A stretch of 64,000 nucleotides of DNA from Takakia lepidozioides (taxonomy: Eukaryota; Plantae; Bryophyta), in contig CM060731.1 in NCBI GenBank assembly GCA_030704615.1, forward strand, positions 63,984,001-64,048,000, in the 5' to 3' direction. Positions within the stretch are counted from its first letter, which is position 1; each line of letters starts with the position of its first letter. The notes under the pieces are model-generated. The model was not told where the DNA came from. It ran no database searches and saw nothing but the letters and a program-made list of their open reading frames with translations. Of this stretch, positions 2,461-61,293 are shown piece by piece. Both the position numbers and the translations under genes were made by a program.

Positions 2461-2576
2461 TTCTTGCGGTGGATGCAGGTGCAGGTGCCCTGAGCCACTG
2501 GGATATGACCCTTAAACTGCAACAGGTGCCTACCCGTGTCACTATTAGAACTAGTAATAGAGCCTTATAGTGTCAC

Positions 2577-5234
2577 GTGGGGGAGGTACACATTGTGAGT
2601 GTCATCACGGAGTTACCCAGGGGTTTTGAGGGGAGTACGGCTACAGGCAGTAGCAGTGAGAGTGGGTTCACCAGACGAGGTGTTCATTTCAGACCACCTT
2701 CACCTCCACCCTCAACTAGTGCAGAGTCAGACACAGACTCAGAGGCTTCATCAACAGGTATGCAGTTTCATTCGCCATTGTTGTGGGACGACATGGAGGA
2801 GATGTATGGAGCTACCAAGGGGCCTCGTAGGTACTCTGGAGCTGTGGGCACAATCGAGTTGGATGACTTAATCCAGGAGTTCGACAGTTGGTGTGATTTG
2901 CAGCAGATGCGCAATCCACAGCTATTCACCCCATTCATGGCGTGGAAGGGACTGTTCCAGCATTTGGAAGGTCCGCCTATGGACGATTACCACGAGTTCA
3001 GGCGAGGACATGAAGCAGAGATTGAGGAGTGGAGGATGTATTGGTCACCTGACTACGTCTCCATTACTCGAGGCACGACGCGACCAGTAGCTGCATCAAT
3101 ACCAATATCTCCCACTACCAGCACTAGTAGTGGAACAAGTAGTGCCGGTACTTCTACAGGTGGTACCAGTTCAAAATGTGCTACTACTCCTCCTGCCACG
3201 ACTACAACACATGTGCCTAGATTCAACCCGGTGGTGGAGTTCTTCCAGGAGTTGCGGAAGAACTATCAAGGTGTACGGACAGAGAAGCTGCGAAGTTTGC
3301 AAGACTTCCAGCGCAAACCCAGTGAGAGCTTGCGAGAGGCCTACACTCGTATGAGGCGCTTGATAAGTGTGACCCAAGGGGTTACTGAAGCTCAGGCAAT
3401 CCAGTTTTGGTATGGAATTTTGGACAAGGAGCTCAGGAGAAGGGTGCGGGATGCAACCCTGTTACAAGCAGCCCAACCCACATTAGCAGATGTGTTTCTG
3501 CTGGCTGAGCGGATTGAGCTCAACATGGTGGAGGAGCGAGTTGTTACCATTGGGTTTGGCAAGGACATGCATGCACGAGGCGTAGCTGCCAGCCCACAGG
3601 CACAAGGGACTGCCCAACAGCGTGGTCAGGGGGGCAAGGTTTCCCAACCCAAGTTCCATGGAGCTTACAGGGGACCTCAGGTGCAGAGGCCCGTGGCATC
3701 TTTTGTAGGCCAACAGCAACCAGGGGTGATATGTTGGACATGTGGAGGACCCCATGTCAAGAGAGATTGCCCAGAGAGTGGCAAAAGGCCGGCACAAACA
3801 CAGCCTGCACAGTTGCAGTGTGGGCATTGTGGCAAGTATGGGCATGGAGATGCCCAGTGTTATGACTTCCATCCTGAGTTGCGCCCAGGCCAGTTCCAAG
3901 GGAACAATGGTGGCCGGGGGCGAGGTGGACCAGCCCAAAGAGGACGAGGTGGTCGGGCACGAGGTGCAGGCCAAGGGCAAGCTCAACATGGCCAAGGACG
4001 CGGAGGTCAGGGTGTTGACCAAGGCATGGCCAACCGGCTTCAGCAGCTAGAGCAGAGGCTCGCTGCCATGGCTACAGCTCAGGTGGTACCGGCTCCCAGG
4101 CGGGATGGTCCACCTCCTGCTCCTGAGGGAGGAGATATGGGAAGCATGGGATTCATGTGCGGAGCAGCACTACCACTAGAGCAGGTGAAGTCTGCTGCAG
4201 AGGTGACTCGAGGAGCAGCACGAGTTCCTGAGCCACGAGGTGTAGAGGTGGAGTTGGATACACAACGTGGGGAGGCAAGCCGTCAGGCGAGGCTGCCTCA
4301 GTCATTCACCTTGGCGGAGACAGTGTCAACGCCATCCATGGCACCTAGTTCTCGCCCGACTGTTACCGAGGCGGAGGTTTCTATGCCATTGTGGAGAGTT
4401 ACACGTGCAGCACTGACACCTGCTGCCAAGGCTAGTGCAGCCGGTGTGTTGTTGGGGGCAGCCACCTTTGTGTGTCAAGCCCCACTGTTCTCGGCAACCA
4501 TGATTGCGACGCCAGGGGTAAGACCAGCTGCAGTGTTCAGACTAGCAGCAACACTCTGTGAGAGTGGGGAGGTCACTTCATCTTCTGCGGAGTTACTGGA
4601 AGGTGTAGTGGCAGAGGGATCCTCGGATTTGAGGGTCAAGACTGCCACGGCTGCGCCATGGCAAGCTGCAGCTGCCAGGTTGACGGAGCTGCCAGCTAGG
4701 CCAGCCTTTGAGTGCGCCATGGTGACACCTGGAGTTGTCTTGTTAGACAACCAGGATGTCATTTTCTCTTTGAGTGGACCGGCAGGCAAGAAGTACCGGC
4801 CACTGCGGGTCTTGTTGGACTCGGGAGCTCAGCCACTGATGTTGGGCAGAGCTGCTATTGCAGGTTTGGGCCTCATGGAGGCGGATATGGAGCCTTGTCA
4901 TTTCCAGATACAGACATCTCTGGGAGGATCAGAGCATGCTCGGGGCATGACACGGCATCAGTTGGCCATTAGACTGCAGCCGGATCATCCTATCGATGGC
5001 TCAGTAATGCGAGCCAAGGCCATTGTGACAGATGCGGTCTCTTACGATGTCCTCATTGGTGGGGCAGTGTTATACCCCATGGGCTTCACCCTGGACTTTT
5101 GGGAGGAGTCAGCATTCTACAGGCCTGGATGGCAGTCAGGGGATGGTCGTCGTGCACAGCTCCCTGTGACATTCATTGGGGGTATTGCGGCTGCCCAACG
5201 GGCCAACACTAGCCGCCTTTACAGCTGTAGTTAG
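2577..5234 (+). CDS. gag: Gag-protease polyprotein
   Basis: Capsid-like LQDFQRKPSESLREAYTRM; Zn knuckles CWTCGGPHVKRDC and CGHCGKYGHGDAQC; RGG/Gln-rich tract; retropepsin VLLDSGA…YDVLIGG. First ATG at 2760. Confidence 0.9.
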   Translation: MGEVHIVSVITELPRGFEGSTATGSSSESGFTRRGVHFRPPSPPPSTSAESDTDSEASSTGMQFHSPLLWDDMEEMYGATKGPRRYSGAVGTIELDDLIQEFDSWCDLQQMRNPQLFTPFMAWKGLFQHLEGPPMDDYHEFRRGHEAEIEEWRMYWSPDYVSITRGTTRPVAASIPISPTTSTSSGTSSAGTSTGGTSSKCATTPPATTTTHVPRFNPVVEFFQELRKNYQGVRTEKLRSLQDFQRKPSESLREAYTRMRRLISVTQGVTEAQAIQFWYGILDKELRRRVRDATLLQAAQPTLADVFLLAERIELNMVEERVVTIGFGKDMHARGVAASPQAQGTAQQRGQGGKVSQPKFHGAYRGPQVQRPVASFVGQQQPGVICWTCGGPHVKRDCPESGKRPAQTQPAQLQCGHCGKYGHGDAQCYDFHPELRPGQFQGNNGGRGRGGPAQRGRGGRARGAGQGQAQHGQGRGGQGVDQGMANRLQQLEQRLAAMATAQVVPAPRRDGPPPAPEGGDMGSMGFMCGAALPLEQVKSAAEVTRGAARVPEPRGVEVELDTQRGEASRQARLPQSFTLAETVSTPSMAPSSRPTVTEAEVSMPLWRVTRAALTPAAKASAAGVLLGAATFVCQAPLFSATMIATPGVRPAAVFRLAATLCESGEVTSSSAELLEGVVAEGSSDLRVKTATAAPWQAAAARLTELPARPAFECAMVTPGVVLLDNQDVIFSLSGPAGKKYRPLRVLLDSGAQPLMLGRAAIAGLGLMEADMEPCHFQIQTSLGGSEHARGMTRHQLAIRLQPDHPIDGSVMRAKAIVTDAVSYDVLIGGAVLYPMGFTLDFWEESAFYRPGWQSGDGRRAQLPVTFIGGIAAAQRANTSRLYSCS

Positions 5235-6702
5235 TTGGCCTGGAGAGTTGCTGGAAGGCAATGCCCATGCAGAAGATGTGCCACCTCCAGCAGAGCAGGA
5301 TGACATGCATGGTATGGCGGAGTTGCCTGCCATGGTTGCTCACACTCCATTGTGGGGTACGAGCAAGGATTTGCAGCAGGTTGCTAATCGACGGGTGCAA
5401 CAAGCCTGGGTAGAGGCTTTTGTACCGTCAGGAGAGGAGGAGAGTGCGGGTATTGCACCAGGACCACCTCAGTTGTCACCATTGGATACCACACCTATTG
5501 TGTGGCAGTATCCGGATGAAGGCATTTGCCTTCTGGACTTGTTTGGCGGGATCAGCACCGGATTGGCTGCTGTGCTACAGGCAGGTGTGTGGGTAAGGCG
5601 TTACCTGTATGTGGAGAGGGATGAGACTGCACGACGCGTCTCACTGCGCCATGTTGCTCAGTTGGTACAGCAGTACCTTGCTTTGTTGCCAGTGTCTGCA
5701 GTTCGTGGATACCAACAAGCCTTGCCAGCAGACATTTCGTTGCTGGGGGCGCCGGATTTGGAGCAGGTTGGCTCCATTGATCTGGTAGTGGCAGGTTGGC
5801 CCTGCCAAGGGCATTCATCAGCCGGGCATGGCAATGGATTGCGAGACTCGAGGACGGGTCTGTTTTGGGAGATGGTGCGGATTTTGCGCCACTTGCAGCT
5901 TCATCAAGCTGTATCTCCAGCATACATCTTGGAGAATGTGCCACTGATGGGCGATTCTCGGGCCAGGGTGATGGCCAGTGTGCATCAAGTCCGGTCGTGG
6001 CTTGGGTCAGCAGTGCTGCTGGATGCAGCTGCAGTAGGATCACGGGCTCATCGTCCACGACTATGGTGGACTAACTTGATGCCACCCGCACTGCTCAAGC
6101 GTGCATTTGATGGGGTGCAGCGGCCAACACACCTCATAGTGGACAGCATTTTGGACACAGGGAGGCAGTCTCAACGTGTGAGACACGATGACCGTTCGCC
6201 TTTGGCAGTGGTCAACAGGGTGGGTCAACCACGAGCAGCATTACCTACACTGCTCAGCTTCCCAGGATCCCATGCTTTTTCGGGATGGTGGACCTGGCCT
6301 CTGTGGGATAGCCAGTTGCAACAGTTAGTGGAGCCTAATGCCGACGAGCGAGAGCGGGCTATGGGATTTTCCACTGGGACCACGGCGGTGCCTTCTCTTT
6401 CTGAGGCATCACGTCGTCAGGTGTTGGGGCAAGCAATGGATCTCAATTGCTTGACCTGGATTATCAGCTTGGCTATGGCTGAGCAACGTAGAGTGCGGAG
6501 TGCACTTCCCTTGACGGTCTCTCTGCCTACCGAGACGGTACAGGCAGCGAGTGGGGGCGAGGCGGTGAGGACCACGGGGTGTAGACATCCATGGCACACG
6601 TGGGAGGTGCTCGAGGTTCAGAGGGAGTTGGCAGCCAAGGCAGCTGTGATGGATGAGGTTGGGGATTCTTCTCGGGATGAGGAGGTTTCAATGATGAGAT
6701 GA
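5176..6702 (+). CDS. DNMT3-like C5-cytosine DNA methyltransferase domain inside the retrotransposon
   Basis: Motif I LDLFGGIS (~5530), II YVERD, IV VVAGWPCQ (catalytic PC, 5800-5805), VI LENV (ENV 5932-5940), VIII AHRPRLWWTNL, IX ERERAMGF, X RRQVLGQAMD. Linear motif order, no introns, overlaps the end of the gag ORF. Confidence 0.92.
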   Translation: MGVLRLPNGPTLAAFTAVVSWPGELLEGNAHAEDVPPPAEQDDMHGMAELPAMVAHTPLWGTSKDLQQVANRRVQQAWVEAFVPSGEEESAGIAPGPPQLSPLDTTPIVWQYPDEGICLLDLFGGISTGLAAVLQAGVWVRRYLYVERDETARRVSLRHVAQLVQQYLALLPVSAVRGYQQALPADISLLGAPDLEQVGSIDLVVAGWPCQGHSSAGHGNGLRDSRTGLFWEMVRILRHLQLHQAVSPAYILENVPLMGDSRARVMASVHQVRSWLGSAVLLDAAAVGSRAHRPRLWWTNLMPPALLKRAFDGVQRPTHLIVDSILDTGRQSQRVRHDDRSPLAVVNRVGQPRAALPTLLSFPGSHAFSGWWTWPLWDSQLQQLVEPNADERERAMGFSTGTTAVPSLSEASRRQVLGQAMDLNCLTWIISLAMAEQRRVRSALPLTVSLPTETVQAASGGEAVRTTGCRHPWHTWEVLEVQRELAAKAAVMDEVGDSSRDEEVSMMR

Positions 6703-6770
6703 TGGGGCAGGATGAGGCCTTGTCATTGACTGAGCAGGAAGGGAGTACTGCTCAAGAGGTTGCAGCATAG

Positions 6771-7969
6771 CAACCACGGGACGCGTCCTCTACCTCTAAG
6801 CCCACTGGACTTAAGGTTGCAGTTACGGAGGACAATTGGGAGCCTGACATTGGACCCATTGTCACCGGAGGAGAGAGACGACGTATACGGCGGTTCCTGA
6901 GGGCTTACAGGAATTGCTTTGCCTTCAGTTTGAAGGACTTGGGAGCACTGAAGGGTCAAGAGATCCGTATTGAGTTGGCCACTGACACGCCAATCTTTCG
7001 GAGACCCTATAGATACAGTGACATGGAGAGGTCTTTGATTCAGATGAGGACTCAAGATCTCTGGGAGGCAGGTTTGGTGGAGCTCTCTGGTGGAGAGTAT
7101 GCTTCAGCCACAGTGATGCCAGCCAAAAGGATGTCTATGGCAATTGGACGGAGAGACGTATGTGCGGTGATTACCGGCCTGTAAATCGTCAGACCAAGTC
7201 CGATAGGTATGCCATGCCGACACCTTTGATGCCATTGGGCATTCCAAGGTCTTTAGCACGTTGGATTTACGATCCGGATATCACCAGTTGCCGATCAAGG
7301 AGGCGGATAAGCAAAAGACGACATTTTGGGGGATCAATGAGCACGGGAAGGATTGCCTATACCAGTGGCGGTTCTTACCATTTGGGCTTAAAAACGCTCC
7401 GCTGAGTTTCAAAGAGTCATGGACAGGATTCTAGCAGGGGTGGAGTTTGCTCGGTGCTACATAGATGACATCATCATCTTTAGTGCTACGGTGGAGGAGC
7501 ATGAGAGACACCTTCAGGGGGTATTTGAGCGCTTGAGGGCGCACGGATTGAAGTTACATCCGGGAAAGTGCAAGTTTTTCCACAACCAGATTGAGTATCT
7601 GGGTCACATGATATATCCTGGAGGATTGGGGGTACAGCAGACTAAGTAGAGTCCATTGCACAGGTTCCACGCCCCACGGATGTGAGCCGAGTTCGAGCTT
7701 TCATGGGGTTAGCAAACTATTACAGACGGTTTGTTAAGGGATTTAGTGCCATTGCAAAGGCTCTAACCAAGCTAACCAAGGTGGACCAGGAGTGGCAGTG
7801 GGAAGATGAGCAAGAACAAGCTTTTCAAGAGCTCAAGGCGAGGTTGACCTCGGCGCCCATCTTGAGACGACCTATCAGGGGGCGTCTTTTCAGCTGCATA
7901 CAGATTGGAGCATGCTGGGGCTTGGAGCGGTGCTCACACAGGTGGATGATGAGGGAAGAGAGTTCGTAG
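6771..7969 (+). pseudogene. pol: Reverse transcriptase and connection domain of pol, broken by about 5 small indels
   Basis: Across frames: RRPYRYS, EYASATVMPAK, MCGDYRPVN, LDLRSGYHQL, PFGLKNA, YIDDIIIFS, KCKFF, YLGH, FMGLANYYRRFV. The frame is open from 6771 into the 6930 ORF. Confidence 0.93.
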
Positions 7970-9891
7970 TGGCTTATGCTAGCCGCTCGAACAATGTTGC
8001 AGAGTCTAAGTATAGCTCATATGAGGGAGAATGCTTAGCTGCAGTGTGGGCCGTGGCACACTTCAGGTGCTATCTATACGGCAATCTCTTCACCCTTGTC
8101 ACGGATCACCAACCACTCAAGTGGTTGATGGAGTCAGACAAGCTTACGGGGAAGCTTGCACGGTGGGCACTCATCCTTCAAGAGTATGACTTTCAGGTGG
8201 TGCATCGACCGGGTTTGGTCAATCGCAATGCAGATGGGTTGAGTCGCAATCCATGCACGAGCCAGCAGGATGACACTGGAGCTCGGTGGCATGGTGAGAC
8301 GGACGAGGAGATGGTGCCCGGATGGCATGCATCTGCATTTCTGTGTATCTTGGCAGCGGAAGGCCAGGTTGGACCTGCAACAGGGATGACTGTAGATCAA
8401 GTGTCTGAGGACCCTGAGGCCAGCAATGAGCAAGGTGGCGCCAAAGATATACATGAGGATTCAGTTGTGTTGGACTACCTCCGCACTGGAGACACTGCAG
8501 CCACTGTGACTGCCAAGGAGAGGGATCGGATCCTACAACGAGCCAAGAGGTTCAAGTGGGAGGGGACACACCTGCTCCGAGTGTGGGAGGATGGTCGAGT
8601 GAGGATTGTGCCTCACCCAACACAGCGGGCACGGTTAGTGCGGCATGCCCATGAGGAGTTGGGGCATTTTGGGGTGCGACGCACTCATAGTCTACTGCAG
8701 GGGCAGTATTGGTGGCGTGGTATGCACACAGAGGTGCAACAATTTGTGGCTAGGTGCATGGTGTGTGACAGGGTGCGTGCTTCATTCAACGCCCCTACTC
8801 CACAATTGCACCCTCTTCCGATCATGGGATTGGGCTACAGGTGGAGTCTTGACTTCGCAGGGCCGTTGCCACTGACCATGCGTCACAACAAGTACGTGTT
8901 GGTGATGGTGGAGCACTTCTCCAAGTGGATTGAATTGGTTCCATTGCCTGATAAGGCTAGTGAGGGAGCTGCGTATGCATTCTTGGATTGTGTGCTTAGC
9001 CGATTCGGTGCTCCAGCTGAGGTACTCACGGACCAAGGGAGAGAGTTCTTGGGGGAGTTTCAGGCTTTGTGTGACAAGGCCTTGATAGACCACCGCACCA
9101 CTTCTCGGGATCATCCTGAAGCCGATGGCTTGGCAGAGAGAGTTGTTCAGACAGTAAAGAGGGGTTTGCGCAAGTATGGCTTGCAGAAGGGACACCTAGG
9201 AGATTGGGACCTTCAGTTACCCTGGTTAGCCATGGGCTACAGGTTCAGCAAGCAAGCATCACTTGCCTCCTTCTCACCATACTTTCTTCTCTTTGGCCGA
9301 GAGCCGGATTTGCCTACATCCATTCGTAGAGAAGCTGCTACAGTTCTTAACCTTGACGATCCGGACATGTGGGCACGTGCATGTGAGCAGCGTGCAGAGT
9401 TGTTCAAGAGAGTCATGCCCATGGCTTTCGAGAACCTTGCCATTGCACAACACCGTGATACGTTGAGGTATGCTACCATACGTGGTGGGGGCTATCGTCC
9501 TGGGGTTCGGAGATTCAACCCTGGTGACTATGTCTATCTGCAGCAGACTGCTCCTACGACCCTGGATGTGACTGCAGGACGTGTTATTTTGAGGGTTCGA
9601 GAGGTCTTGCCCTCAGGCGTCTTGGTCTTGGAGGGTCGGGATGGCATAACTTGGAAGGACCATGTGCGTAATTGTGCGCCATGTCACCTTCCGAATGTCG
9701 ATGGCAGGATTGACCCAAACCTGGCAGTGGTATCTGCAGGTTTGAGGTGCATGTTGTGTGGGTCTGCTAAAGGGGCAGCCACCATGCTGGTGTGTGATCG
9801 ATGCTCTAGAGGTTGGCATATGGGATGCTTGACTCCACCTCTTGAGATGGTTCCGGATGGGGATTGGTTATGTCCACATTGCATTGGATAG
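7912..9891 (+). CDS. pol: RNase H - integrase - C-terminal PHD finger
   Basis: RNase H GLGAVLTQ, YEGECLA, TDHQPL, NADGLSR; integrase Zn site H-H/CMVC; DDE motifs WSLDFAG, TDQG, AERVVQT; C4HC3 PHD CMLC…CDRC…HMGC…WLCPHC at ~9748-9882. Confidence 0.95.
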   Translation: MLGLGAVLTQVDDEGREFVVAYASRSNNVAESKYSSYEGECLAAVWAVAHFRCYLYGNLFTLVTDHQPLKWLMESDKLTGKLARWALILQEYDFQVVHRPGLVNRNADGLSRNPCTSQQDDTGARWHGETDEEMVPGWHASAFLCILAAEGQVGPATGMTVDQVSEDPEASNEQGGAKDIHEDSVVLDYLRTGDTAATVTAKERDRILQRAKRFKWEGTHLLRVWEDGRVRIVPHPTQRARLVRHAHEELGHFGVRRTHSLLQGQYWWRGMHTEVQQFVARCMVCDRVRASFNAPTPQLHPLPIMGLGYRWSLDFAGPLPLTMRHNKYVLVMVEHFSKWIELVPLPDKASEGAAYAFLDCVLSRFGAPAEVLTDQGREFLGEFQALCDKALIDHRTTSRDHPEADGLAERVVQTVKRGLRKYGLQKGHLGDWDLQLPWLAMGYRFSKQASLASFSPYFLLFGREPDLPTSIRREAATVLNLDDPDMWARACEQRAELFKRVMPMAFENLAIAQHRDTLRYATIRGGGYRPGVRRFNPGDYVYLQQTAPTTLDVTAGRVILRVREVLPSGVLVLEGRDGITWKDHVRNCAPCHLPNVDGRIDPNLAVVSAGLRCMLCGSAKGAATMLVCDRCSRGWHMGCLTPPLEMVPDGDWLCPHCIG

Positions 9892-10151
9892 TGGGAGTGG
9901 ATACAACCATGGAAGGCTAACAAGAAACGCAAGGCCCAGCTACTAGGAGACCTTGAACACACGAGGTCCTGGCTCAAGTTCACAGATTGCAAGACGGCGA
10001 CTAACGATGGGGCTACTCTTGTACCCGACCTCTTGGTCTATAGAGTTTGAGTGCAATAGGGGCAGTGATAGAGGACTTAGTACGGATGTGGCTATTACAT
10101 CTTGTAGCTATCTGGAGGTAGAGGGACCTACCCACCAGCTAGGGGGGCGAT

Positions 10152-10679
10152 TGTGGTAGACTACTTTATTTTGCATATATGTGTGGTGTGGTTTGGACAG
10201 CGATGTAGTTGTGTAGCGATACGTATGCGCACGACAGGTGTCAAGTTAAATAAGCACATTGTGAAAACGACTAGAATAAAGCTAGTTATTTGTACTTAAC
10301 ACTTGGATTTAGGTCAAGTGTTAAGTCAGGTGTCAGGTTTAGTTTGACACCTGAACCGTCTTATCTTCACGAGAGCGGCAGTCGCGCAGCTCATCTCTCT
10401 CGAGTTGAGCCTGCGCGACCGAGCTCATTCATCGCTTCAGATCTGAATGTGCTTATGATGGGAGTGTAGGTTGTTGTGGGGTGGAGTCCCCATAGCTTGG
10501 GGTGCCCCTGGCTCGACTTCTGTTTTAACGAGTGATGCTGTTGGATTCATGTTGTTTCTTGTATGAACAGTGTGTTCTTAGCTTTTCTTATCATTGTGGC
10601 AGACTACTTTATTGTGCATATATGTGTGGTGTGGTTTGGACAGCGATGTAGTTGTGTAGCGATACGTATGCGCACGACA
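10152..10679 (+). repeat. Candidate 3' LTR (528 bp) bounded by two 85-bp direct repeats (10152-10236 and 10595-10679)
   Basis: Starts TGT just after the PPT (AGGGGGGCGAT) and ends ACA, where PPR-coding sequence begins abruptly. The two 85-mers differ at 2 positions. No 5' LTR is available to confirm the limits. Confidence 0.65.
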
Positions 10680-13300
10680 AAGGCCTAGAAGTTGGAAAAC
10701 AGGTGCACACTCACATTGTCCAAAGTGGATTCACGCCGAACGTTTTTCTACTCAACAACCTTGTCAACATGTATGTTAAGGGGAGCATCATGGATGATCA
10801 CCAAGTGTTCAACACAGAATGCCTCAACGATCTTTAATCACGTGGAATATAATGTTGGCAGGATTACCAAGCATGGGCGTGGTACGAATGCTTTGGAGAC
10901 CTGTGAGCAAATGCGCGAAGGGGTGAAGCCCAACCACATCGTGTTTGTATGTGTTTGCAATGCATGTGCAAGCCTGGAAAAGGGGAACGAGGTCCATGGT
11001 GACATCGGTCAAAGCTAGAATTGCACTGGATGTCATTCTGAACACTGCCCTGACCTGGACATGTATGCCAAATGTGGATGCATTGAGGATGCAAAGGGAG
11101 TTTTTGACACTATGGCTAAACGAGATGTGGTGTTGTGGAGTGCGATGCTTGCAGTGTATATTCAACAGGGACGTGGGATGGAGGCTTTGGAGACCTATGA
11201 TCCAATGATGGGGGAGGGGGTGAAGCCCGGCCACTTTGTGTGCATTTGCAATGCTTGTGCAAGCCTGGCAGCCCTGGACAAGGGCAAAGAGGTGCATGGG
11301 GATATCATCAAAGCTGGAATTGTACCAAATGTCATTCTGAACAATGCCCTGGCAGCTCTGGAAAAGGGGAAAGAGGTCCATGGCGACATCTTCAGAGCTG
11401 GAATTGTACCAAATGTCAGTCTGAACCATACCCTGGTGGACATGTATGCGAAATGTGGTGCATTGAGCCTGGACGAGGGCAAAGAGGTGCATGGGGTATC
11501 ATCAAAGCTGGAATTGTACCAAATGTCATTATGAACACTGCCCTGGCAGCTCTGGAAAAAGGGGAAAGAGGTCCATGGCGATCTTCAGAGCTGGAATTGT
11601 ACCAAATGTCATTCTGAACCATATCCTGGTGGACATGTATGCAAAATGTGGGTGCATTGAGCCCTGGACAAAGGCGAAGCGGTGCATGGGGTATCATCAA
11701 AGTGGAATTGTACCAAATGTCATTATGAACACTGCCCTGGCAGCTCTGGAAAAGGGGAAAGAGGTCCATGGCGACATCTTCAGAGCTGGAATTGTACCAA
11801 ATGTCATTCTAAACCATACCTTGGTGGACATGTTTGCAAAATGTGGGTGCAAAGGGATCTAGGATCTAGGATGCAAAGGGAGTGTTCGACACTATGGCTG
11901 AACGAGATGTGGTGTCGTGGAGTGCGATGCTTGCAAGGTATGCACGGCAGGGATGTGGGATGGAGGCTTTGGAGACCTATGAGCAAAGGATGGGGGAAGC
12001 ACATCATGTTTGTGTGCATTTGCAATGCTCGTGCAAGCCTGGCAGCCCTGGAGACGGGCAAGAGGTGCATGGGGATATCATCAAAGCTGGAATTGTGCCA
12101 AATGTCAATCTGAACACTGCCCTAGCAGCTTTGGAAAAGGGGAAAGAGGTCCATGGCGACATCTTCAGAGTTGGAATTGTATCAGATGTCATTCTGAACA
12201 ATACCCTAGTGAACATGTTTGCAAAATGTGGGTGCATCTAGGATGCAAAGGGAGTGTTCGACACTATGGCTGAACAACATGTGGTGTCGTGGAGTGCGAT
12301 GCTTGCAGGGTATGCATGGCAGGAAAGTGGGATGGAGGCTTTGGAGAGCTATGAGCAAATGATGGGGGAAGCACATCATGTTTGTGTGCATTTGCAATGC
12401 ATGTGCAAGCCTGGTAGCCGGCTTGGAGAAGGGCAAGAGGTGCATGGGGATATCATCAAAGCTGGAATTGTGCCAAATGTCAATCTGAACACTGCCCTGG
12501 CAGCTTTGGAAATGGGGAAAGATGTCCATGGCGACATCTTCAGAGTTGGAATTGTACCAGATGTCAATTCTGAACAATACCCTGGTGAACATGTTTGCAA
12601 AATGTGGGTGCATCTAGGATGCAAAGGGAGTGTTCGACACTATGGCTGAACGAGATGTGGTGTCGTGGAGTGTGATATGATGCGCTTGCAGGGTATGCAC
12701 AACAGGGATGTGGAATGGAGGCTTTGGAGACCTATGAGCAATGGAAGTACATCATGTTTGTGTGCATTTGCAATGCTTGTGCAAGCCTGGCAGCCCTGGA
12801 GAAGGGCAAGAGGTGCATGGGGATATCATCAAAGCTGGAATTGTGCCAAATGTCAATCTGAACACTGTCATAACAGCTTTGGAAATGGGGAAAGATGTGC
12901 ATGGCGACATCTTCAGAGCTGGAATTGCACCAGATGACATTCTGAACAATACCCTGGTGAACTTGTTTGCAAAATGTGGGTGCATCTAGGATGCAAAGGG
13001 AGTGTTCGACACTATGGCTGAACGAGATGTGGTGTTGTGGAGTGCGATATGATGTGCTTGAAGGGTATGCACAACAGGGATGTGGAATGGAGGCTTTGGA
13101 GACCTATGAGCAATGGAAGCACATCATGTTTGTGTGCATTTGCAAGCCTAGCAGCGGGCCTGGAGAAGGCAAAGAGATACATGGGGATATCATCAAAGTT
13201 GGAATTGTACCAAATGTTAATCTGAACACTGCCCTGGCAGCTTTGGAAAAGGGGAAAGAGGTCCACATGGCGACATCTTCAGAGCTGGAATTGTACCAAA
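10680..13300 (+). pseudogene. PLS-class PPR pseudogene expanded into a tandem array (~66-bp and ~375-bp units)
   Basis: Repeated ALEKGKEVHGDI-x-x-AGIVPNVILN and MYAKCG-x-IEDAKGVFD…RDVVSWSAM motifs, with many frameshifts and recurrent TAG stops. No E or DYW domain. Confidence 0.88.
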
Positions 13301-13376
13301 GTGAATGTCTGTCAGATTACCAGATGCAAAGAGGTGCATGGTTGCATCGCCACAGGCAGCAGCTGCAGCGGCATAG

Positions 13377-13455
13377 TTGAACTAAATCCAAGTGTTAAAT
13401 ACAAATAACTAGCTTTATTCTAGTTAGTTTCACACTGTGTTTATTTAATTTGACA
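13377..13455 (-). repeat. 79-bp inverted copy of LTR-internal segment 10239-10317
   Basis: Reverse complement matches TGTCAAGTTAAATAAGCAC…GGATTTAGGTCAA with 8 mismatches by manual alignment. Confidence 0.85.
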
Positions 13456-13918: not shown

Positions 13919-16900
13919 ATGGCAGAGCACGGCAAGTTGCGCCTCTACATTGATATACTCTCCCAGCCTTGTCGTGCTGTCCTCATCTTCTGCAGGTTCG
14001 TTGCACAGCTCTCTGCACGCGTCTTTCTCTTGAATCGCCAATCTTTTCTCTTTTAGGCGATCTGCGTACCGGTACCTGAATCTCTAGGATCAGTAATCTC
14101 CCGTAGACATTCAGGAGACAAATATTCAGAATCTCCAGACTCTCTAGAATCGGTACTCTGGACTTGTGTAATTTGGTCCTGCTATATCTCAATCAACATA
14201 AAGCACACTGGTGCAGATCATGTGTTCAATGTGGGTAATTACATTACAAGGTGCACTGGATCAATATTGCAGGCTCAGCGCCTTGCTGCGACAGCCGCAC
14301 CACCTTTCCCCCAGCATTGTGATACCTGCTACAATAAACCTATGTTAATTAGCCAGCACCCAAGTTAGGTGACTAGGTCATGCAGTGGGGTCGGGGTTGT
14401 GTGTGGTAGCTAGTTGGTGTATGTGTATGCATTGTACAGTTGCTGGCAGGCCGCGTGATGGATTGGGGTGATGGCCTGGCAGGGTTAACAATATAGAAGT
14501 GGAGGTGCACACTGTTGAGCTGATGAAAGGTGAAAACCAACGATCTGAATTCAAAGGTAAACACCCACTCGTCTGCCTTCTTTTGGAAAAGAAAATTCTG
14601 GATCAATTTCGTAGCTCGACCTGGTCTTGATTTCTGTCCTTGAAGATTGAAGGTTGGATTGGCTTTGAGGCTTGCAGAGTCATTTCTACTGAGCCTGAAT
14701 TCTGTTCAAGATGCAGCTATGGCGGTGGAAGCCCGCGCGTGTTCCTTAAGGCTCTGCGATGAAGTCTTTTAATCCAATGTGTCGTCCTTTGCCTTCTGAT
14801 CATGCGTTCACTGTAGATGTCACCGTCAAGGAAAGGGAGGGTTGCTGAAATATATAAAGCTTAGCACTTGAAATGTTCAAAACAAGTGGGAGGTGTGCAT
14901 CATGACAGTATCAATTGGTGTACGCAGCCATCAGTCCTATGGGACTAGTTCCTGCTATCGATGATGGTGGCTTACGGATTTTTGAGAGGTTAGTACACTT
15001 CACTACTTTAGTGATCTACACACGATCATCTTACTAGTTATCTGTCAACTTGAACATCCTTTCACAGTACACATATATACGAATTTTTACAATAATACGT
15101 GGGTATCCAGCCGGACATGTACATGTGTATCTTGAGTACCTAGGCCGATCCTGAAGTGTTTTTTGGGCTTCTCTTCTCGGGGAATTTGGGGGTGCAGCCA
15201 TGCAATCTTGCGATATTTGTCAAGTAAACCAGGAGTGGCTGATCACTGGTAAGTCATCCGTGGACATATGTTGGAAATTTAACCCATTCACATAGTACCA
15301 TACGACCTCAGCCCGGGAGTTATGTTTACTCAAGATATGAGCCCTACATGAGCAGTGCAATGACACGATGGATCCAGTAGATAGACACTTGGTTTACCTG
15401 TAGAGAGTTCACTGTACATGGAAATTGAGAGGAAAGTCAATGACCAAACGTACAATGCAGACTTCGGTTCGCAAATTACTTTCAGACCTCGTAGATGAAG
15501 CCAAAACAGGCCTATCTATTCTTTCCAAGATCTTTATCCCACGAGTAACTTTTCTTTTTGCAGGTACCCCAAGCTCGATATGCAGAGAAGAGCCCAAATT
15601 GACTGTGTACTGGATTGGCATCATGCGAATTTACACCGTGGTACAAGTATGAGCACTTGTTTTTCACTCGTTTTTCACTTATGTGCGTCTATGATATTTG
15701 TATATAGTGACATAATTCAGCTTGTGATCTCGATGGATCTCCCTGGGGATTGTTGGCTATCTCGGAATGAGTTTGTGTAAGCTCGTTACCAGTTTCATGA
15801 CCTTCTTTGGACTGATAAACTTGTACGTCCTGGAAACTTGTTCGTTTATAGTTTCTGAGAAGCCTCCTAGATGCATGCTTGAAACGTCCTTCACTCACTG
15901 CCTTGGCTTACTTCTTGAATCTGATAGCGGGTATTTTGAGCTTAGCTCAGGTGCCTGGGAAGTTATGCCAAGGTAATCCTCGTTATCTAATTTGTTCTGG
16001 ACTGGGACCACCATGCCAACGTTTGACTCGTAAAGTTCTCTTGAATTCACATATGTTATCTTAAGTTCCTGGAAGGAAAGGCGAAACAGCTCTTCCTCAA
16101 GATTTCCCTGAGCGACCCTAATTCTAAGCATTTACGGTGGACCTTATTAGGAAGAGGACGAGCTGCTTTATACTTTTAACCTAAGACTGCAGATACTCTT
16201 GCTGTTGTGCATGGACCACGGTTGTACATCATATTTGTTGAGCAATACCTGTTAACCACAATAATTTTGATTGACCTGATAGGGATTTAATGTAGAACTT
16301 CATAGTGTGGATGAGTAAGTTATTAACAAGTCCACCGTTGTTGTCAAGTTGCGGGTTTGAAATTTTAATCAAGTCCACCGGCATACATGAATATCTCACA
16401 GGGATACTCAATTTCAGAGTGAATAGTTCTCAATATATTGCATGCCAAAATGTGAATATTGCGCGGTATGCTCTACTATGCTTTGCACATTGCAACCCGA
16501 ATATTAATATCATCTATGCACATGAATGTTATGGCTGCAGCTGGAGTGCTGCGCCTGCGGGTGGTGAATGCACTACTCGGTAGGGAAGATACAGATGGAT
16601 GGCCACTATCTTCTGCTGAAAAGTCTTTGAGGTCAGCCCTCGAAATGCTAGAGACGGTGTGGTTGCAAGCAGGACAACGATTTGTGGTCAAGGGGGATCA
16701 ACCATCTATTGCAGACCTCAGCCTTGCATGTACGGTGCAGCAACTGCAGGTACTCATAATGTGTGATGACTTGCATATGTGTTTCCAGTATGGTGCCCAA
16801 CGATCGAAGTGCCAAACAAGATTGTCGGTTCTGATGGCCAATGTTGTAACTCCGGAGTTGCAAATGGATACTAGGAGTCAAGGAAGTGTATAAGAAACTG

Positions 16901-18302: not shown

Positions 18303-21300
18303 CTAGTCAGCTTTGCTACAAGCAGGAGTATCAGCCGCATCGGCTAGTCCACCAGTTTGCTCAAGGTGGTCGTGGTCTGACACAAACGACAGTTCGCATG
18401 CAAGAGCTAGGTGATCGCTCCCCCATTTCTGTGCACAATTGTCATCAACCATTCACCAATTAAAAACCCCACCCATCACATCCAAAATGTCACCAATAGT
18501 ACCAAAATGACTGTCTATCTAATCAGTTATTGTATTCTTTTTTCCTTTGCAAAATGCAAGTTATGCATTCAGAAATAAGTTAAAGTTCAGCTATGAGGCA
18601 CCATGATAAAAACAATGGCCGTGAAACAATAACGGAAACTCTGCTACGACTCTGGTGTGTGCGTGTGAGAGACAGAAAACCAGGCGGCACCGGGCTCAGC
18701 ATCTTCTTGGCTTGGGAAGGTTGTGATCAGTATATGAAGTCTCTTCTTGGGTGCTGCTGGGAATAGACAAAAACCATGCTGAAGGGAGAGAGGGAGAGAG
18801 AATGTACTCATAAGACGTTGTTTGCCGTAGCCTTGTGGCCATTGACCCCGCGCCCAGTTTGAGCGGAAACCATAGGGAACGAACCTACCTCTGTCAGGGG
18901 CTGACATTGGTAGTAAGACTTACCTTTATACATAGAATTGACCCGGGTTTTCCAGATATCCTCTAGAAATCCCTTCACACAAGCATCAATCTGCTGTGTG
19001 TGATTTGCCCAAAAACTAGGCCTCAGGAGGGCCTGGGCTTTTGGCTCAGCCTCGAGAGTTTCAAAGTTGGTAAACACGGGTACAGGCACAATTCCCTTGA
19101 TAGAGTTGAAGAGAGCGTCTCTTTGGTGAGAGAACCCGGACAGTGTATCAGAAAATGAATACTGTCTTCAGATTGCCCACACAACGGGCAATTGCACTCT
19201 CCCTTTCCTCTCTGCTTCTGTTTGCTGTTCAAAGGTAGGCTTCCTGCCCTGAGTTTAAATTTCCCGAGAGTGGGTAGACCCTTGAGGTCATCCAAAATGT
19301 CCTCCCCATGTCACTGACTGGAAACAAGTTCAGGGAAGTTTTCTGCCTAACTTCATTTTCATCAGACAATCTCATGGCAACAGACATGGCTTTGGACACT
19401 ACAGCCTCTAAGTCAGATTTATCCAGCAGGGTCAAGACTTGCGGATCCAGGTCCAGGTCCTTGAGAATCTCTTCTACTCTCTTCTGCCAGGACTTAAGCC
19501 TGTTTGACAGGGCGGTCCTGTTTCCAAGATATAGAGTCGATTAACTTAGGATATCTGGTGTTGGGCATATGTTGCAGCTGACTCCACCATCTGACCTTGA
19601 ATTCATCTCGTCGGGAGCTTAAGGATGGAATGCCAAACTCACCCCGAACAGCCACATTGGCTGTTTTGGAGCATGCTGACATACACTCCTTAAGCACCCC
19701 CACTTGAATGGATTCTAGAGACTTAGCCTGGTTGGAGTTATCAACCCATATAGCAGATCCGTACTCCAAGGCAGGTCTAATAACGCGACAAAGCATGGTT
19801 TTCTTAACCTCAGAGTTGACCCCTCTGCAGTAGAAAAATTTAGTGAGCCCCAGAGCTTTGCCCTGGACAGTTTGAACAACTTTCCGGATATGTGCATCCC
19901 AATTACAATTGGAGGAAAACACAACGCCCAGGTAAGTGTAGGAAGGGAGGACCGGGATCTCTTAGCTACCCCACTGCCACTTAAGATCACTTCCTCCCTC
20001 TCCTCTGACGTTGAATGCTACCACTGCACATTTGCTGACATTAGCCTCTAGCCCCCAAAGATCAAAGTATCTCTTCGCGCAATCAATCAACTCCTGGAGA
20101 TTGGTTGGAGTCTCCCCTATGCCTGCGAAGTCATCTGCAAACATAAGGGCTGGTATGGTGGGTATCACCCACCCTTAACCCAAATCCCTCACTTTCACAT
20201 CCTCGAGGAGTTGATTGATGAAAACATTGAAGAGCAGAGGGGAGAGAGTACATCCTTGAGCTACACCTTGGTCTATGTCAAAGAAGTTGGACTTCTGTCC
20301 GTAACAGTGACACAGCTTTTGGTGTGAGCATACAAGTTGTGGACAACTCTCCACATCTTTCCCTTGATCCCACAAGACCAGAGGCGGAACCATAGGCCAT
20401 CTCTCCACACTGTGTCATAATCCTTTTTGACATCCAGGAAAAAAACATAAGTGGGTTTCCCTTCTTTTTTCCTTCCCTGAATAATCTGGCTTAGAGTTAA
20501 GATATGATCCACACAGCCCCTGTTTCGCCGAAAGCCAGCTTGGCCTTCGTGGAAACAACCTCTAGACTCCACATCAACCTCGAGACAAGTACTTATAACT
20601 CTGCAGAATGTCTTGCCAACAGCATTGAGGAGTGTGATGCCACGGTAGTTCCCCGGTTCTTCTCTGTCATCCTTCTTGTATAGATTGACAATGACCCCCT
20701 GTCGCCAGCGAAAGGGGATCATTTCAGTCTTCCAGATAAGGTTAAAGAGGAGAACTAGGGCCTCTATCATGGGATCGCCACCGTGCTTGATAAGCTCGTT
20801 GACAATACATCAGGTCAACCAGCTTTATATCCATTTTTCAATTGCTTCCACAATCTCAGAAGAACTAATGGGAGCGTTATAAGCCATTGAAATATACTCC
20901 AGTTCATCAGGGCTGTTTTGAATCATAGGGACAGTTTTTCCAACTGTGTCCCTCCATTCAGCAGAAGACCCCTCACTGTTAGACCTAGAAGTTTCTGCCA
21001 AGGATACTGTAGTGATTTTCAAAGGTTTTGACAATGTCAACCGATGAAGTCACCACTGCACCTTTAGTAGTCTTCAGCGCTTGTACTTGCTGACCGTTTT
21101 TAGGCTTGTACAAACGTTGAAGGGCCAACCAGAATTTCTTGTCATTACCACCATGGTGGTTTGAGTTTATTTCACTGTATAACTTATCCCAGTATAATTT
21201 CTTCTGAGACCTAACAAGCTGATTGATATCTTTACGGAGCTGGTAGTACCTCGCCCACATTCTTTGTTGTTTTCAAATTGCAGCACTCTTATAGAGGGCT

Positions 21301-24300
21301 CGTCTCTCAGCTATCTTGAGTTTGATCTCATTGGTCCACCAATTAACAGCTCTACGCAGACAATTAGTTTCCTCCCAAATGATCTTGTCAGCCACGGAGG
21401 AAACGAAACTCTCCCCAAGAGTCCACTGCTCTTTCGACTTCATTTCTTGCGTTGTCAGAGAGAGACTCAAGTTCTTGGAGCGATTGGACAAAGTGAGGGA
21501 GAGCCTCTTGCAAGGCCTGGACGTACTCAGCCTTGACCTCCTCATTATGGAATTTTTCTATGCGCCACTTCCGAATCGAACGTTTCACAGATCTCTTGGT
21601 GTTGAGAAAACACCTTTTGATCTCAGTCCAAACCAGGAAGTGGTCAGAGGTACCAATATCAGTTCTGTCGATCAACACATTGGCACACTGGGGAAACAAA
21701 TTTTTGTCCATTATGATATAGTCCACAATGGAACGTTCCCCAGTTTGGGATTTCTCACGAGTCCACTGCACTTGGTCACCTCTTGTCCTGTTATTCAAGG
21801 TCAAAAGCTGAAGCTCTTCCAGACAGTTAATTAACCGTCTGCCATTAGAAAAAGCTCGTCCTCACCAAAAGGCCCAATGATATCGTCCTGATGGAGCCCT
21901 TTGCCCACCCGGGCATTGAAGTCACCCAATAGCACTACCTGACCTTTGGCAAGGAAGAAGCACAGTCCAGCTTTACATCTTCGAAGGCTTTGTCTGCGTC
22001 AGCACTAAGGGTCCCCTCTGTGGGCATGTAAACACAACCCACAAAGAGGTCCTTCGTACTCATGCCGCCCTTCAGATTCAGTTTTAGCCAGATACTATGC
22101 TCGTACCTCAAACCCTTGTTGAGAATTTCACAATTATCAAACAAGAAATCACGGACAAAGAATCCAACCCCTTTTTGACCGCGTTTGGCAGAGGCTGCCT
22201 TGAGAGTACACATCCTACCTGCCCATTTATAACCATTGACATCTCCAACCAGTTTATCCGACGTTTCCCATGTTTCTTGCCCAGCACAGATATGAATATC
22301 ATTAGTCCGAAGGACTTGTCCCACTTCGAGTTGTTTCCTTTGGTTAGTAAGCCCTGAGAAGTTGAAAGTGGCCAGCCGCAAGCCAGCCCTTTGCATGTGA
22401 ATTGTTTGTCGTCTAGGTAGCTTGTGATTGCTCCTGGACGGCCAACCGTTCTGCAAAGGGGGGACAGTTACCCCATGTGTAGATTTTGCTCGTCTTGTGT
22501 AAACTTTGAGAATTGGTAAACCATTCAGGGTACCAAATCCTTCAGTTACACGACGCACAGGCTCCGCACACTTAGGGGTATATTGTCCGTCAGACTGCTT
22601 GGGACAATTACCCCGTGTGTAGATTTTGCGTCTTGTGTAGACTTTGAGGATTGGTAAACCAGTTAGAGTACCAAATCCTTCAGTTACACGACGTTCAGGC
22701 TCTGCACACTTAGGGACAGATTGTCCATCTGACGGCTTGGGGACAATTACCCCGTGTATAGAATTTGTTCGTCTTGTGTAAGCCTTGAGGATTGGTAAAC
22801 CATTCAGAGTACCAAATCCTTCAGATTCAGGACGTTCAGGTTCTGTACACTTAGGGGCATCTTGTCCTTCTGGCTGTTTGGATTCAACCTCATTCAGAGC
22901 ATCAAACCGATTAGAAACCCTCAAGTTGAAGTCCTTGCCCTTGGTTGTCTTCCTAGAGCGCCCCATTGAATCACCAATGTCTAAGACCGCTCTCCAGCCA
23001 GTCAAGGGACGAACTTCTTTGAGATTGAATTGATGTGGGACTCTATTATCAAGTCTCGAGATGGAACCATTAGCCATGAAATCCAAGCCTAAGCTAGAGC
23101 ATGTAGTTTTAAAGGACACATCGTCCATCCTGGGATTCACCCCAAAAACTACACATGAAGCCCTAGATTTGGCATAAGTAACCAATTCCCAGGAATCACC
23201 CTGGGGAGTGTTGATGTTGATAGGAGCTAAAATCCAGAGAGAGAGAGAGAATATGTATCATACGACATTTCCGTAGCCTCCAGAGAGAGAGAGAGGGCAC
23301 AAGCATCAACCTGCTGTGTGTGGTTTGCCCAATAACTAGGCCCCAAAAGGGCCTGGGCTTTTGGCTCAGCCTCAAGACTCTCAAAGTTGGTAAACAGAGA
23401 TACAGGCACAATTCCCTTGATAGAATTGAAGGGAGTGTCTCTCTGGTGAGAGAACCTGGGACAATGAATGAGAAAATGAATATTGGCTTCAGCTTGCCCA
23501 CAAAACGGGCAATTGCACTCTCCCTTTCCTCTCTGCTTCTGTTTGCTGTTCAAAGGCAGGCTTCCCGCTCAGTCTAGTGCCGAGAGTGGGTAGACCCTTG
23601 AGGTCATCCATGATGTCCTCCCCCATGTCACAGACTGGAAACAAGTTCAGGGAAGTTTTCTGCCTAACTTCATTAGAGGGAGGGAGAGAGAGAGAAAGAA
23701 CCTGTGATGGAAGGCCTTGCGTACGCTGTAGAATATCCAGAGGAAGAGTATCTAAAACCCTTACTGTAGACAAACCCTCTGTATGCCTGCACCAGCCAAT
23801 TCATCATTATGGCTCTCCTTACCTCCAAATGCCATAGCTTGCCTTCTATTGCTAGATGAGCATACAGTTGACTTCATCCCATGATCTGACAATATTTGGT
23901 TCCCCTATCACTTAGCCACTGAGACCCGCTATATTTCCTACTGGTCACATGCAACTTGATCTTACACTTGTCTGCAGCTTCCTTGCTCCATGTCCTCAGT
24001 GCTGTAACATTCTCATTTACAAAACTTAAGACGCATTGTTTCAGAAGGATCAACAGAGGTATCTGGGAGCAAATACCAAATGTAATCAACAGTCCCCATA
24101 AACTTGCGGTGATAGGTTGTAACAAGTGGCTCCCCCATGTCATCTCTGCTGCCAGCCTTGCCCTGCTCATAGAAGCTGCAAGGTCAGGAGGATGTACTAC
24201 TCCAACAAAGAAGGACACAGTGGCCCAAGACATTGGACCACCTATGTGGGAGGACACTGGCAATGGACCAATAAGCTAGAGAGATCACAATATCCAACAA

Positions 24301-42429: not shown

Positions 42430-45392
<2,963 letters not shown>

Positions 45393-59700: not shown

Positions 59701-61293
59701 CTGTAACAAGAGAGGTCTGACTGGCGTCAGAAATGCAATGCGCATATCAGCATCGGACAGCATATCATCTATACTGCCATCTTCCTCAAAACTAGTCGAG
59801 TAAACAGACATGCATCTACCGTGCAGCTATTGAGTAACTGATGCTTCTAGCACACACTCAGCCAAGGGGCACCTCTCATCCAGCACTGCCTGCCCCTTAT
59901 CCTGACAAACCACGTCCCATTTCCGCATTCAATTTCCCTTATAAATGGATATCTGCTCTATAGCACAGCTGTACGCACAAACTTGCCAGCTGGGCACTCA
60001 AGCCTGATCATGGAGGCCACAGATTCCTTGCTTGTCGAAAGTCAGTAAACACATGTGATGAACAATGAAAACTGTTAATATGCTCTGGGAGCAGGTTGTT
60101 AAGCGTTTCTGCAAGAGGCAGCTGCCTAGTTGCATTATCTACTCCAATGGAAGAGCATAGCAGCCATTATCCAAGGGTTTGCATGCTCTGCAACCAGGTG
60201 TGAGCCATAGTGTGCCAATGGAAGTGCCAAACCAGGCAGATAGGAGGTAGGAAGCTGAAAACCAACAGCATATCATTTCCTTTTCAAAGCATTAGCAATG
60301 ACTACCTGTAGGCTTGTCTGTTGCCAATATGGGAGCTCCATTTGGAGGGCCAGGCAGAGGGGCCTCGAGAGAGAGCGGAGCATCCTCTCCCCACTCACGT
60401 TCAGGCTCAAGGGGCTCGTCTCCTGCAACAATAACCAAGTCTTCTTCGTCTTCATCTTCGCTGCCCTCAACGTACTCCCCTTCCCCCGCTCTTTCCAGGT
60501 TGTTAAAAGCGGGGGCTTCATCGTTCAACACGATTTGAAGGTCATCCTCACTGTCACTGTCCCAATCATCACCTTCCTCCCCAGTTATCCCACCCATTGG
60601 AGCACCTTCCCTGCTGCCACCATCCCTCTCTGTTGCTTCTTCCTCGAGATACAACCCTCCAGATTCATGTTCTGAACCCTCTGCAGCACTTCGCCTATGA
60701 AGATCACTTCCCTGCGAAACCCCACTTTCTCCAATAGAAATAGGGTTTCTATGTCCCTCTAATGACGAGGTTTTGACAGCGATTGCATCTACCCCACTCG
60801 GAAACGATGCCTTCCCCCCACGTTCACGTATTCCAAATAAGAAGGATTTCCCATCTTCAACGCTTGTGCCCGTCAAATCTTTGACACCTGAATCCAATAT
60901 GTCATCAATTGTGCGCTCTGACCCAGTTTTATCTGTTGGTCTCAAGGCACTTTCTTCCACTTTTGATTGTGAGGACACCCTGCTAGCTGCATTTCGAGAT
61001 GTCTTTGAAGAACTGCCGTATAGCTTCCCATAAAGCAAGATTTCCTCGTTGTCAACGTCCTTTTCCCCCAATTCAAACTCTGCAGAGACAGTGCCACTCT
61101 GAACAGCACTTGCTGCCAACGGGAGTGTCTTTGTTGTGGCCAAAGCAATGGAAGAGCTGCCATATAGGAGCTCCTCATCGTCATCCTCGTACTTGTTTCC
61201 AGCTCCCTCCCTTGTCCCATATTCACTCTCACCTTTCACCTGCTCTGGCCCTATATCCGCATAGAGATCTCCAAAATCGTCGTCATCATCCAT
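50776..61293 (-). CDS. FIP1: Polyadenylation factor FIP1 (FIP1[V]-like), multi-exon
   Basis: Start [13 protein letters not shown] (ATG 61293); [13 protein letters not shown]; YVRPGA; Fip1 motif [28 protein letters not shown]; [18 protein letters not shown]; PTGRAIQV; RE/RD-rich region; C-terminal RPARKRRW. Confidence 0.93.

Follow-up and report, generated by a model that had tools for sequence, protein, structure and literature searches.

Retrotransposons that carry a cytosine methyltransferase of the DNMT3 type have been described from a streptophyte alga and from dinoflagellates. The closest described system is KnitGypsy-Dnmt3 of Klebsormidium nitens (de Mendoza et al. 2018, PMC5890265), and the SymbioDIRS-Dnmt3 elements were reported in the same paper. 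Why a transposon carries an enzyme that hosts use for silencing it has been an open question since 2018, and the gypsy form has never been shown to be active. Later papers cite the KnitGypsy kind as 'streptophytes', with no land-plant case in their available text (10.64898/2026.05.21.726589; PMC12344493), and a 2019 opinion paper describes methylase-encoding transposons as absent from 'land plants, such as tracheophytes' (PMC6338049). The stretch analysed here, referred to as the window, comprises 64,000 nucleotides of the bryophyte Takakia lepidozioides (GenBank assembly GCA_030704615.1, contig CM060731.1, positions 63,984,001 to 64,048,000, forward strand). Its first 10.7 kb consist of a Ty3/gypsy element with a DNMT3-like domain and a deleted second copy. 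In the preferred reading, to which a probability of about 0.55 is assigned, this element is a decayed member of an ancient Ty3/gypsy family of the green lineage. In active members, on this reading, the DNMT is likely made in the same large amounts as Gag, likely packaged, and likely used to methylate the element's own complementary DNA (cDNA) before or at integration.

The coding part of the main copy spans 2760–9891 (window positions, + strand unless stated otherwise) and comprises Gag and protease (PR), an intronless, non-permuted DNMT3-like domain, and reverse transcriptase (RT), RNase H (RH), integrase (IN) and a PHD finger. The element runs past 9891 to 10679 through its repeats, and the main copy is without its 5' repeat. 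The first open reading frame (ORF), 2571–5234, contains Gag (ATG at 2760, two zinc knuckles) and an aspartic protease (DSG at 4818–4826), and shares 50% identity with residues 1–758 of Marchantia Mp4g09160; its Pfam match to Retrotrans_gag is weak (E 0.0016, below the cut-off). Pfam also identifies DNA_methylase in the ORF 5170–6702 (E 6e-13), RVT_1 in 7392–7646, and RT_RNaseH, Integrase_H2C2, rve and PHD in 7810–9891. The pol part as a whole (6771–9891), delimited by Pfam and by tblastn against an unbroken relative, contains RT (YIDD at 7458–7469), RNase H, an HHCC-DDE integrase and the C-terminal PHD finger. This PR-RT-RH-IN order with a DDE integrase bears out the Ty3/gypsy identity proposed by a first-pass annotation of the sequence, and the nearest match to pol of the relative L035 is Ty3 Gag-Pol (E 4e-98).

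The window copy is dead, with about seven frame breaks. One is located between 5177 and 5206, between protease and DNMT; further shifts comprise one in the DNMT-RT linker and five in RT/RH (between 7120 and 7890, from tblastn against the unbroken relative). Contigs from the same organism differ from the window copy at most of these places, and summed contig depth is about 10^4-fold higher over the element than over the flank, a ratio that shows the element to be highly repetitive and is not a copy number. The partial copy upstream retains the DNMT C-terminus, the linker, a stop (TAG, 396–398) followed by CAA CCA, and the RT start (1–571, 93% identical to 6373–6944), as the first-pass annotation had seen in part. 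Past an internal deletion it continues with the end of the RNase H linker and the 5' part of integrase, with stops (567–1452, 90.5% identical to 8295–9180).

The methyltransferase domain occupies 5521–6480, with the catalytic Cys codon at 5803–5805. The motifs FGGIS, WPCQG, ENV, RAHRPRLWWTN, ERAMGF and LGQAMD occur in canonical, non-permuted order in a single exon-free frame. The first-pass description of an intact, intronless enzyme holds for the motif order and the exon-free frame but not for integrity, as the copy is decayed and approximately seven codons within the domain (about 6276–6302) are out of register with the homologues. The best solved sequence relatives are DNMT3A catalytic domains (E 1e-9), followed by DNMT3B (2e-6), plant DRM (3e-4) and HhaI (1e-3). 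Foldseek results with the predicted fold (pLDDT 74.5) likewise place DNMT3A catalytic domains first (E 1e-14, TM 0.63–0.70), supporting the earlier DNMT3-like assignment, with the qualification that the nearest solved DNMT3A/B share about 22% identity and that host DNMT3 rows are absent from the DNMT tree described below. Assignment to the plant DRM enzymes was rejected, as the motifs run from I to X without circular permutation.

The conservation of this domain across the family has also been probed. The catalytic Cys is present in 46/46 full-length DNMT copies and the E and N of ENV each in 45/46; the FGG and ENV motifs, which bind S-adenosylmethionine, are nearly invariant. The ratio of nonsynonymous to synonymous substitution (dN/dS) among three stop-free copies is 0.105–0.125, and distant pairs with the window give 0.07–0.11 where computable, near saturation. 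In one stop-free pair, the protease region gives 0.14 and RNase H/integrase 0.025–0.03, so the DNMT value is close to that of the protease region and higher than that of RH/IN. These substitution patterns, which answer the dN/dS check suggested with the first-pass annotation, indicate that the family DNMT is under purifying selection.

In unbroken relatives, Gag, PR and DNMT form a single ORF of about 1250–1370 residues, and the annotated proteins Mp4g09160 (1278 residues) and P0183 (1329 residues) end shortly past the DNMT. In L035, ORF1 (1369 residues) is followed by TAG CAG TTA and then ORF2 (1047 residues). The arrangement in these three relatives supports the earlier suggestion that the enzyme would be made together with Gag-PR. 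The window has the corresponding nine bases at 6768–6776, an amber stop followed by CAA CCA in the pol frame, and the same signal is found in the upstream copy; it has the form UAG-CAR-YYA, the predicted readthrough signal of the tobacco mosaic virus (TMV) type. A total of 54 DNMT-RT junctions were compared (52 loci and the two window copies, two loci with odd gaps being skipped). The junction is in frame in 35, and a stop lies 3–31 codons 5' of RT in 52. The stop is followed by CAR-YY in 45/54 junctions, three more being C-to-T versions. The full CAR-YYA occurs in six (both window copies, L011, L033, L035 and L064), and the Sphagnum-like group has CAR-YYC. Among 767 control stops that arose by decay, CAR-YY follows 8 and CAR-YYA follows none. 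The CAR-YY signal is kept in about five lineages whose linkers cannot be aligned. CAR-YYA after UAG is the essential readthrough signal of TMV, with about 20–32% readthrough in plant reporters (PMC2754532). It is therefore likely, judging from these junctions, that the DNMT is made at the level of Gag and RT/IN by readthrough of a predicted leaky stop.

The ends of the element depart from those of textbook elements with long terminal repeats (LTRs). The 3' end of the window element consists of a polypurine tract (10141–10149), found in the same place in relatives, directly followed by repeat B1 (10150–10236, 87 nt, ending in CA, two mismatches to B2), a 2-nt spacer (10237–10238), repeat A2 (10239–10592, 354 nt, starting with TG, assigned by position) and repeat B2 (10593–10679), which also ends in CA, forms the right end of the element and abuts decayed PPR sequence. 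The A that matches A2 in L044 is also the 5' end of that element, and L044 has the entire A-coding-B-A-B arrangement with a 4-bp target duplication, such a duplication being found in 4/5 loci with both ends. TG...CA ends, a target duplication and a polypurine tract are all present in the family, with the duplication taken from relatives since the left end is missing from the window. The CA-NN-TG junction between B and A recurs in distant lineages (L005, L026, L035, L044, L064, L078 and L079) and in other contigs of the window organism. Sphagnum-like copies have 18 5' ends, at 15 distinct flanks, that begin with A alone; of their 3' ends, three extend past B into A and 12 terminate with B. Two identical complete LTRs with a transfer RNA (tRNA) primer site were not found; the repeats are split into A and B-A-B, and TGG follows 0/18 5' ends. 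In 12/18 of these 5' ends, the 16 bases that follow are reverse-complementary, in at least 13 of 16 positions (control maxima 10–12), to a site at position 162–164 of A, which lies 26 nt below a TATA-like box. LTR-type reverse transcription would give B-NN-A at both ends, and the integrated form is a circular permutation of that product, which suggests a circle opened at the junction. Neither the split repeats nor the predicted signals for a leaky stop and for self-priming had been noticed in the first-pass annotation.

Two further features of the repeats were observed. The B-A junction is near-palindromic, and a CG located five bases from the terminus of B is conserved between very distant lineages, namely in L005, L035, L044, L064 and L078 as well as in the window (10230–10236). 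It may be speculated that this conserved CG is a site where methylation affects the choice made by integrase.

The family extends well beyond the window. The homologue search with the window DNMT returned 226 near-length and 62 longer proteins, including named proteins from Marchantia polymorpha, M. paleacea, Calypogeia, Riccia and three Sphagnum species (48–76% identity) and, among green algae, from Closterium, Chromochloris and Monoraphidium, and also Scenedesmus; no named Klebsormidium protein was among its matches. A profile search yielded 550 clusters (50% identity) at E<=1e-30. In the best 150 of these, the DNMT lies after RT/RNase H in 71, before integrase without RT in the protein in 20, and after Gag/protease or before RT in 15, with 44 unclassed; no recognisable host DNMT3 was among them. 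Viral contigs gave only six weak phage methylases. Two layouts are apparent from these domain orders, a chlorophyte type with the DNMT after RNase H and a streptophyte type with the DNMT after protease. The Gag-PR-DNMT-RT-RH-IN-PHD order is seen, wherever contigs reach, in 80 metagenome loci (the best 80 of 299 matches). Among the fetched loci, L071 (6429–11560) and L072 show two DNMT-gypsy family copies nested in opposite orientations.

Trees were built for the DNMT (quick method, 67 rows selected from the fetched sequences, midpoint root, three weak phage methylases as outgroup) and for RNase H (FastTree, 30 rows, midpoint root), with long-branch warnings for Closterium and P0181. They agree in outline: the window groups with liverwort and Sphagnum-like sequences, followed by L033/L035/L064, then L078/L080, and then Closterium and the chlorophyte type. 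This broad congruence points to long co-descent of the DNMT with the element rather than a one-off capture. Together with the constant order in the metagenome loci, it upholds the earlier view that the DNMT is a family feature and not a chance insertion.

The following mechanism is proposed for active members. First, most ribosomes would stop after the DNMT and a minority would very probably read through into RT-RH-IN-PHD. Next, the element RNA probably primes its own reverse transcription, as in Tf1. Self-priming would yield cDNA with B-NN-A on either side of the internal part, and there is an even chance that this product is circularised and opened by integrase at the internal CA-NN-TG to give A-internal-B-A-B. 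In the particle, protease would free the DNMT, and the balance tips somewhat towards the enzyme methylating the double-stranded intermediate, such that new copies arrive pre-methylated, as camouflage or self-restraint. Finally, the PHD finger is nearest to those of CHD4, PHF12, KDM5 PHD1, ATXR5 and PHF21A, several of which read unmodified H3 tails, and it may or may not, with equal odds, steer integrase to chromatin carrying such tails. A more sweeping proposal, that a clade reaching from chlorophytes to liverworts and peat mosses has retained an active DNMT3 over hundreds of millions of years, moved the enzyme from pol to Gag behind a leaky stop so that particles are loaded with it, primes itself without tRNA, and integrates from a methylated circle opened at an internal CA-NN-TG, is put forward only tentatively.

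Several observations weigh against the reading of a packaged, self-methylating enzyme. No extra CpG depletion is found inside the elements: observed/expected CpG is 0.43–0.70 within them against 0.13–0.46 in their flanks, and 0.46–0.55 in the window element against 0.44–0.48 outside. Element CpG is thus not below that of the flanks, which means that there is no extra signature of CG decay and no support from this quarter for self-methylation. No gypsy-borne DNMT3 is known to be active, and the Klebsormidium domain gave no methylation in yeast, a result that its authors call inconclusive (PMC5890265). In favour of the reading, the related dinoflagellate DIRS-DNMT3 domains catalyse de novo CG methylation in yeast (PMC5890265). 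Four close DNMT pairs that involve decayed copies give dN/dS of 0.50–1.02, values of the kind expected once a copy has inserted. The 54 junctions represent only about five independent motif-bearing lineages, with some loci being the same insertion twice. In the largest group (39/54 junctions), CAA CCC differs from the consensus by one base and is followed by an in-frame ATG at which translation could restart; in L064, too, residue 14 of ORF2 is a Met. There is no stop in the L078/L079, P0391 and Closterium proteins, in which the DNMT is continuous with pol, so Gag-level expression of the DNMT is not universal. Self-priming is not established for the window's own family, for which loose ends were searched and whose 5' repeat is missing, and short A-internal-B copies can also come from recombination between B1 and B2.

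The alternative that survives best, doubtful as it is, keeps the DNMT catalytic but has it act in trans, with host chromatin or further family copies as its target instead of the packaged cDNA, and the Gag-level dose serving as a nuclear pool. Such a dose is far above the need of one cDNA, and effects on the host methylome are discussed in PMC5890265; the Klebsormidium methylome looks ordinary in the same account, however, and in both layouts the DNMT stays inside the packaged polyprotein (between PR and RT, or between RH and IN in the chlorophyte type). It is unlikely that the domain is kept for nucleic-acid binding, particle structure or RNA modification, with DNA methylation incidental or lost. 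The inactivity of the Klebsormidium domain in yeast (PMC5890265), the absence of extra CpG depletion and a constraint on the DNMT that is weaker by dN/dS than that on RH/IN would fit such a role, but a purely structural function would not need the invariant catalytic Cys or the nearly invariant FGG and ENV motifs.

It is improbable that pol is expressed by reinitiation, or from an RNA that is spliced or starts internally, instead of by readthrough; the DNMT would still travel with Gag in that case. The ATG in the Sphagnum-like group lies two codons after the stop, and the gag-pol stop of Tca2 gave no readthrough in yeast (PMC2194720). On the other hand, CAR-YY has been conserved although the surrounding linkers cannot be aligned, and pol lies in frame. 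ORF2 of L035 has its first Met only at residue 117, beyond the conserved N-terminal stretch of pol, so that an AUG restart is disfavoured in this relative. Finally, a single capture of a retrocopied host DNMT3, contamination by algal DNA and chimerism of the assembly are largely refuted as explanations: no single contig of the same-organism runs spans the whole stretch, but dozens of loci, as well as named proteins of liverworts and Sphagnum, show the same order, the profile search found hundreds of clusters, land-plant genes flank the element, and the same sample holds both the element and single-copy flank.

The window as a whole belongs to a land plant, as the first-pass annotation had stated, on the basis of a PLS-type PPR gene with E, E+ and DYW domains and an EGF-alliinase gene; the named PPR matches are all land plants, at no more than 58% identity, and searches of the Atlas yielded nothing beyond generic aminotransferase and phage methylase clusters. 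The PPR gene (31222–32889, +) is apparently whole and of the organelle RNA-editing factor type. Between the right end of the element and a 79-nt inverted remnant of the A-repeat start (13377–13455, − strand, 90% identical to 10239–10317) lie tandem, frame-broken PPR fragments (10680–13310) in units of about 370–390 nt, 65–75% identical to the gene at 31222–32889 and highly repetitive in the organism's runs. At the other end, 1452–2759 is likely the 5' leader of the main copy, from which repeat A is absent; it is as repetitive in same-organism runs as the rest of the element. It holds an open frame of 208 residues (1430–2056, +) that is host-repetitive and covered without gaps by a 707-nt contig of run X12. 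This frame has no Pfam match and no match in 86 fetched loci, and it may be an extra ORF of the window subfamily. A decayed element resembling a long interspersed nuclear element (about 19400–23300, −; RVT_1 E 2e-12) is flanked by a direct repeat of approximately 270 nt (18978–19247 and 23298–23568, about 90% identity). The EGF-alliinase exons (42826–45392, −) presumably belong to a TAA1/TAR-type aminotransferase. Glutathione S-transferase exons lie at 13960–16890 (+), with a GST_C_2 match at the cut-off. A long multi-exon gene at 50700–61400 (−), with an acidic N-terminal exon and RE/RD-rich exons, resembles plant FIP1 polyadenylation factors; two of its exons, tested against Pfam, gave no match.

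Because the family is present in liverworts, Sphagnum and the window land plant, and annotated copies exist in the model species Marchantia polymorpha, genetics and methylation-aware long reads can be brought to bear on why a transposon carries this enzyme. Its dose and place are predicted by the conserved leaky stop, and split repeats on an element with a DDE integrase suggest an integration route unlike that of textbook LTR elements. Should the proposal be true, a self-methylating, circle-integrating retroelement would be open to study in Marchantia. Bryophyte annotations may, moreover, count too many DNMTs on account of such family copies, and element finders that require two identical LTRs may miss these copies.

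Comparison with known systems places the family close to several of them. Suppression of a stop with a readthrough motif reportedly occurs in soybean SIRE1, and REM1 is a Chlamydomonas gypsy element with a PHD finger. Another such element, Chlamydomonas Gypsy-7a_cRei (PMC9940879), is likewise a green-lineage gypsy element with a PHD finger, but no DNMT is described in the available account and its LTRs differ by only 8 bp. The window has the same nine-base in-frame signal as TMV (UAG-CAR-YYA; PMC2754532, PMC2194720); unlike in TMV, the signal would here determine how much Gag-PR-DNMT is made relative to RT-RH-IN, the protease being encoded on the Gag side. The self-complementarity of the 5' ends resembles that of the self-priming Tf1/Sushi and Tcn1 elements (Neumann et al. 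2019, PMC6317226), which also lack a tRNA primer site, show complementarity to the predicted RNA 5' end and occur in seed-free plants. Those elements are chromoviruses with ordinary LTR pairs, whereas a PHD finger, a DNMT and split repeats are found here, and the words PHD and Marchantia are absent from the main text of that survey. A chromovirus assignment was rejected, as a PHD finger follows integrase instead of a chromodomain. Troyka was rejected too, having CG...CG ends, a 3-bp duplication and animal hosts (PMC12440569) against TG...CA, 4 bp and a plant. The EpiLTRs (bioRxiv 10.64898/2026.05.21.726589) are also LTR elements with a cytosine DNMT and a chromatin reader, but they carry a DNMT4-like enzyme at the end of pol, a chromodomain and DAM, and their authors treat the streptophyte Gypsy-DNMT3 as a separate capture.

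The nearest likenesses are with the elements of de Mendoza et al. (PMC5890265). SymbioDIRS-Dnmt3 shares a retrotransposon-borne Dnmt3, the A-coding-B-A-B arrangement and two DNMT positions in different subfamilies, and differs in having a tyrosine recombinase rather than a DDE integrase, a dinoflagellate host and CG activity shown in yeast. The DIRS order was rejected for the window element, as rve and Integrase_H2C2 are present and there is no recombinase match. KnitGypsy-Dnmt3 shares the gypsy domains, an intronless, non-rearranged Dnmt3-related domain with key residues, purifying selection (Ka/Ks under 0.2 in that paper, as in the stop-free copies here) and DIRS-like A-coding-B-A-B repeats, complete here in L044 and present as B-A-B in the window. 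The likeness is drawn from the published description, and the available account does not mention readthrough, self-priming or a PHD finger. The novelty supposed by the first-pass annotation is therefore partial: elements of this kind, with the same repeats, were known before from a streptophyte alga (PMC5890265), and the land-plant range was not found described. In the literature searched, which left most subscription papers, Repbase and some supplements outside its scope, no bryophyte DNMT-gypsy element, nor its readthrough or priming, was described; the Gag-PR-DNMT ORF with its CAR-YY stop, the self-priming and circle-type ends and the chlorophyte-type DNMT after RNase H were likewise not found there. 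Two differences from KnitGypsy-Dnmt3 stand out. Its DNMT lies inside the Pol ORF with RT, whereas here the DNMT ends the Gag-PR ORF before a conserved stop (52/54 junctions); and its host is a streptophyte alga, Klebsormidium only, whereas the window belongs to a land plant. The family described here ranges more widely than the published kind, and the mechanism predicted for it is more specific.

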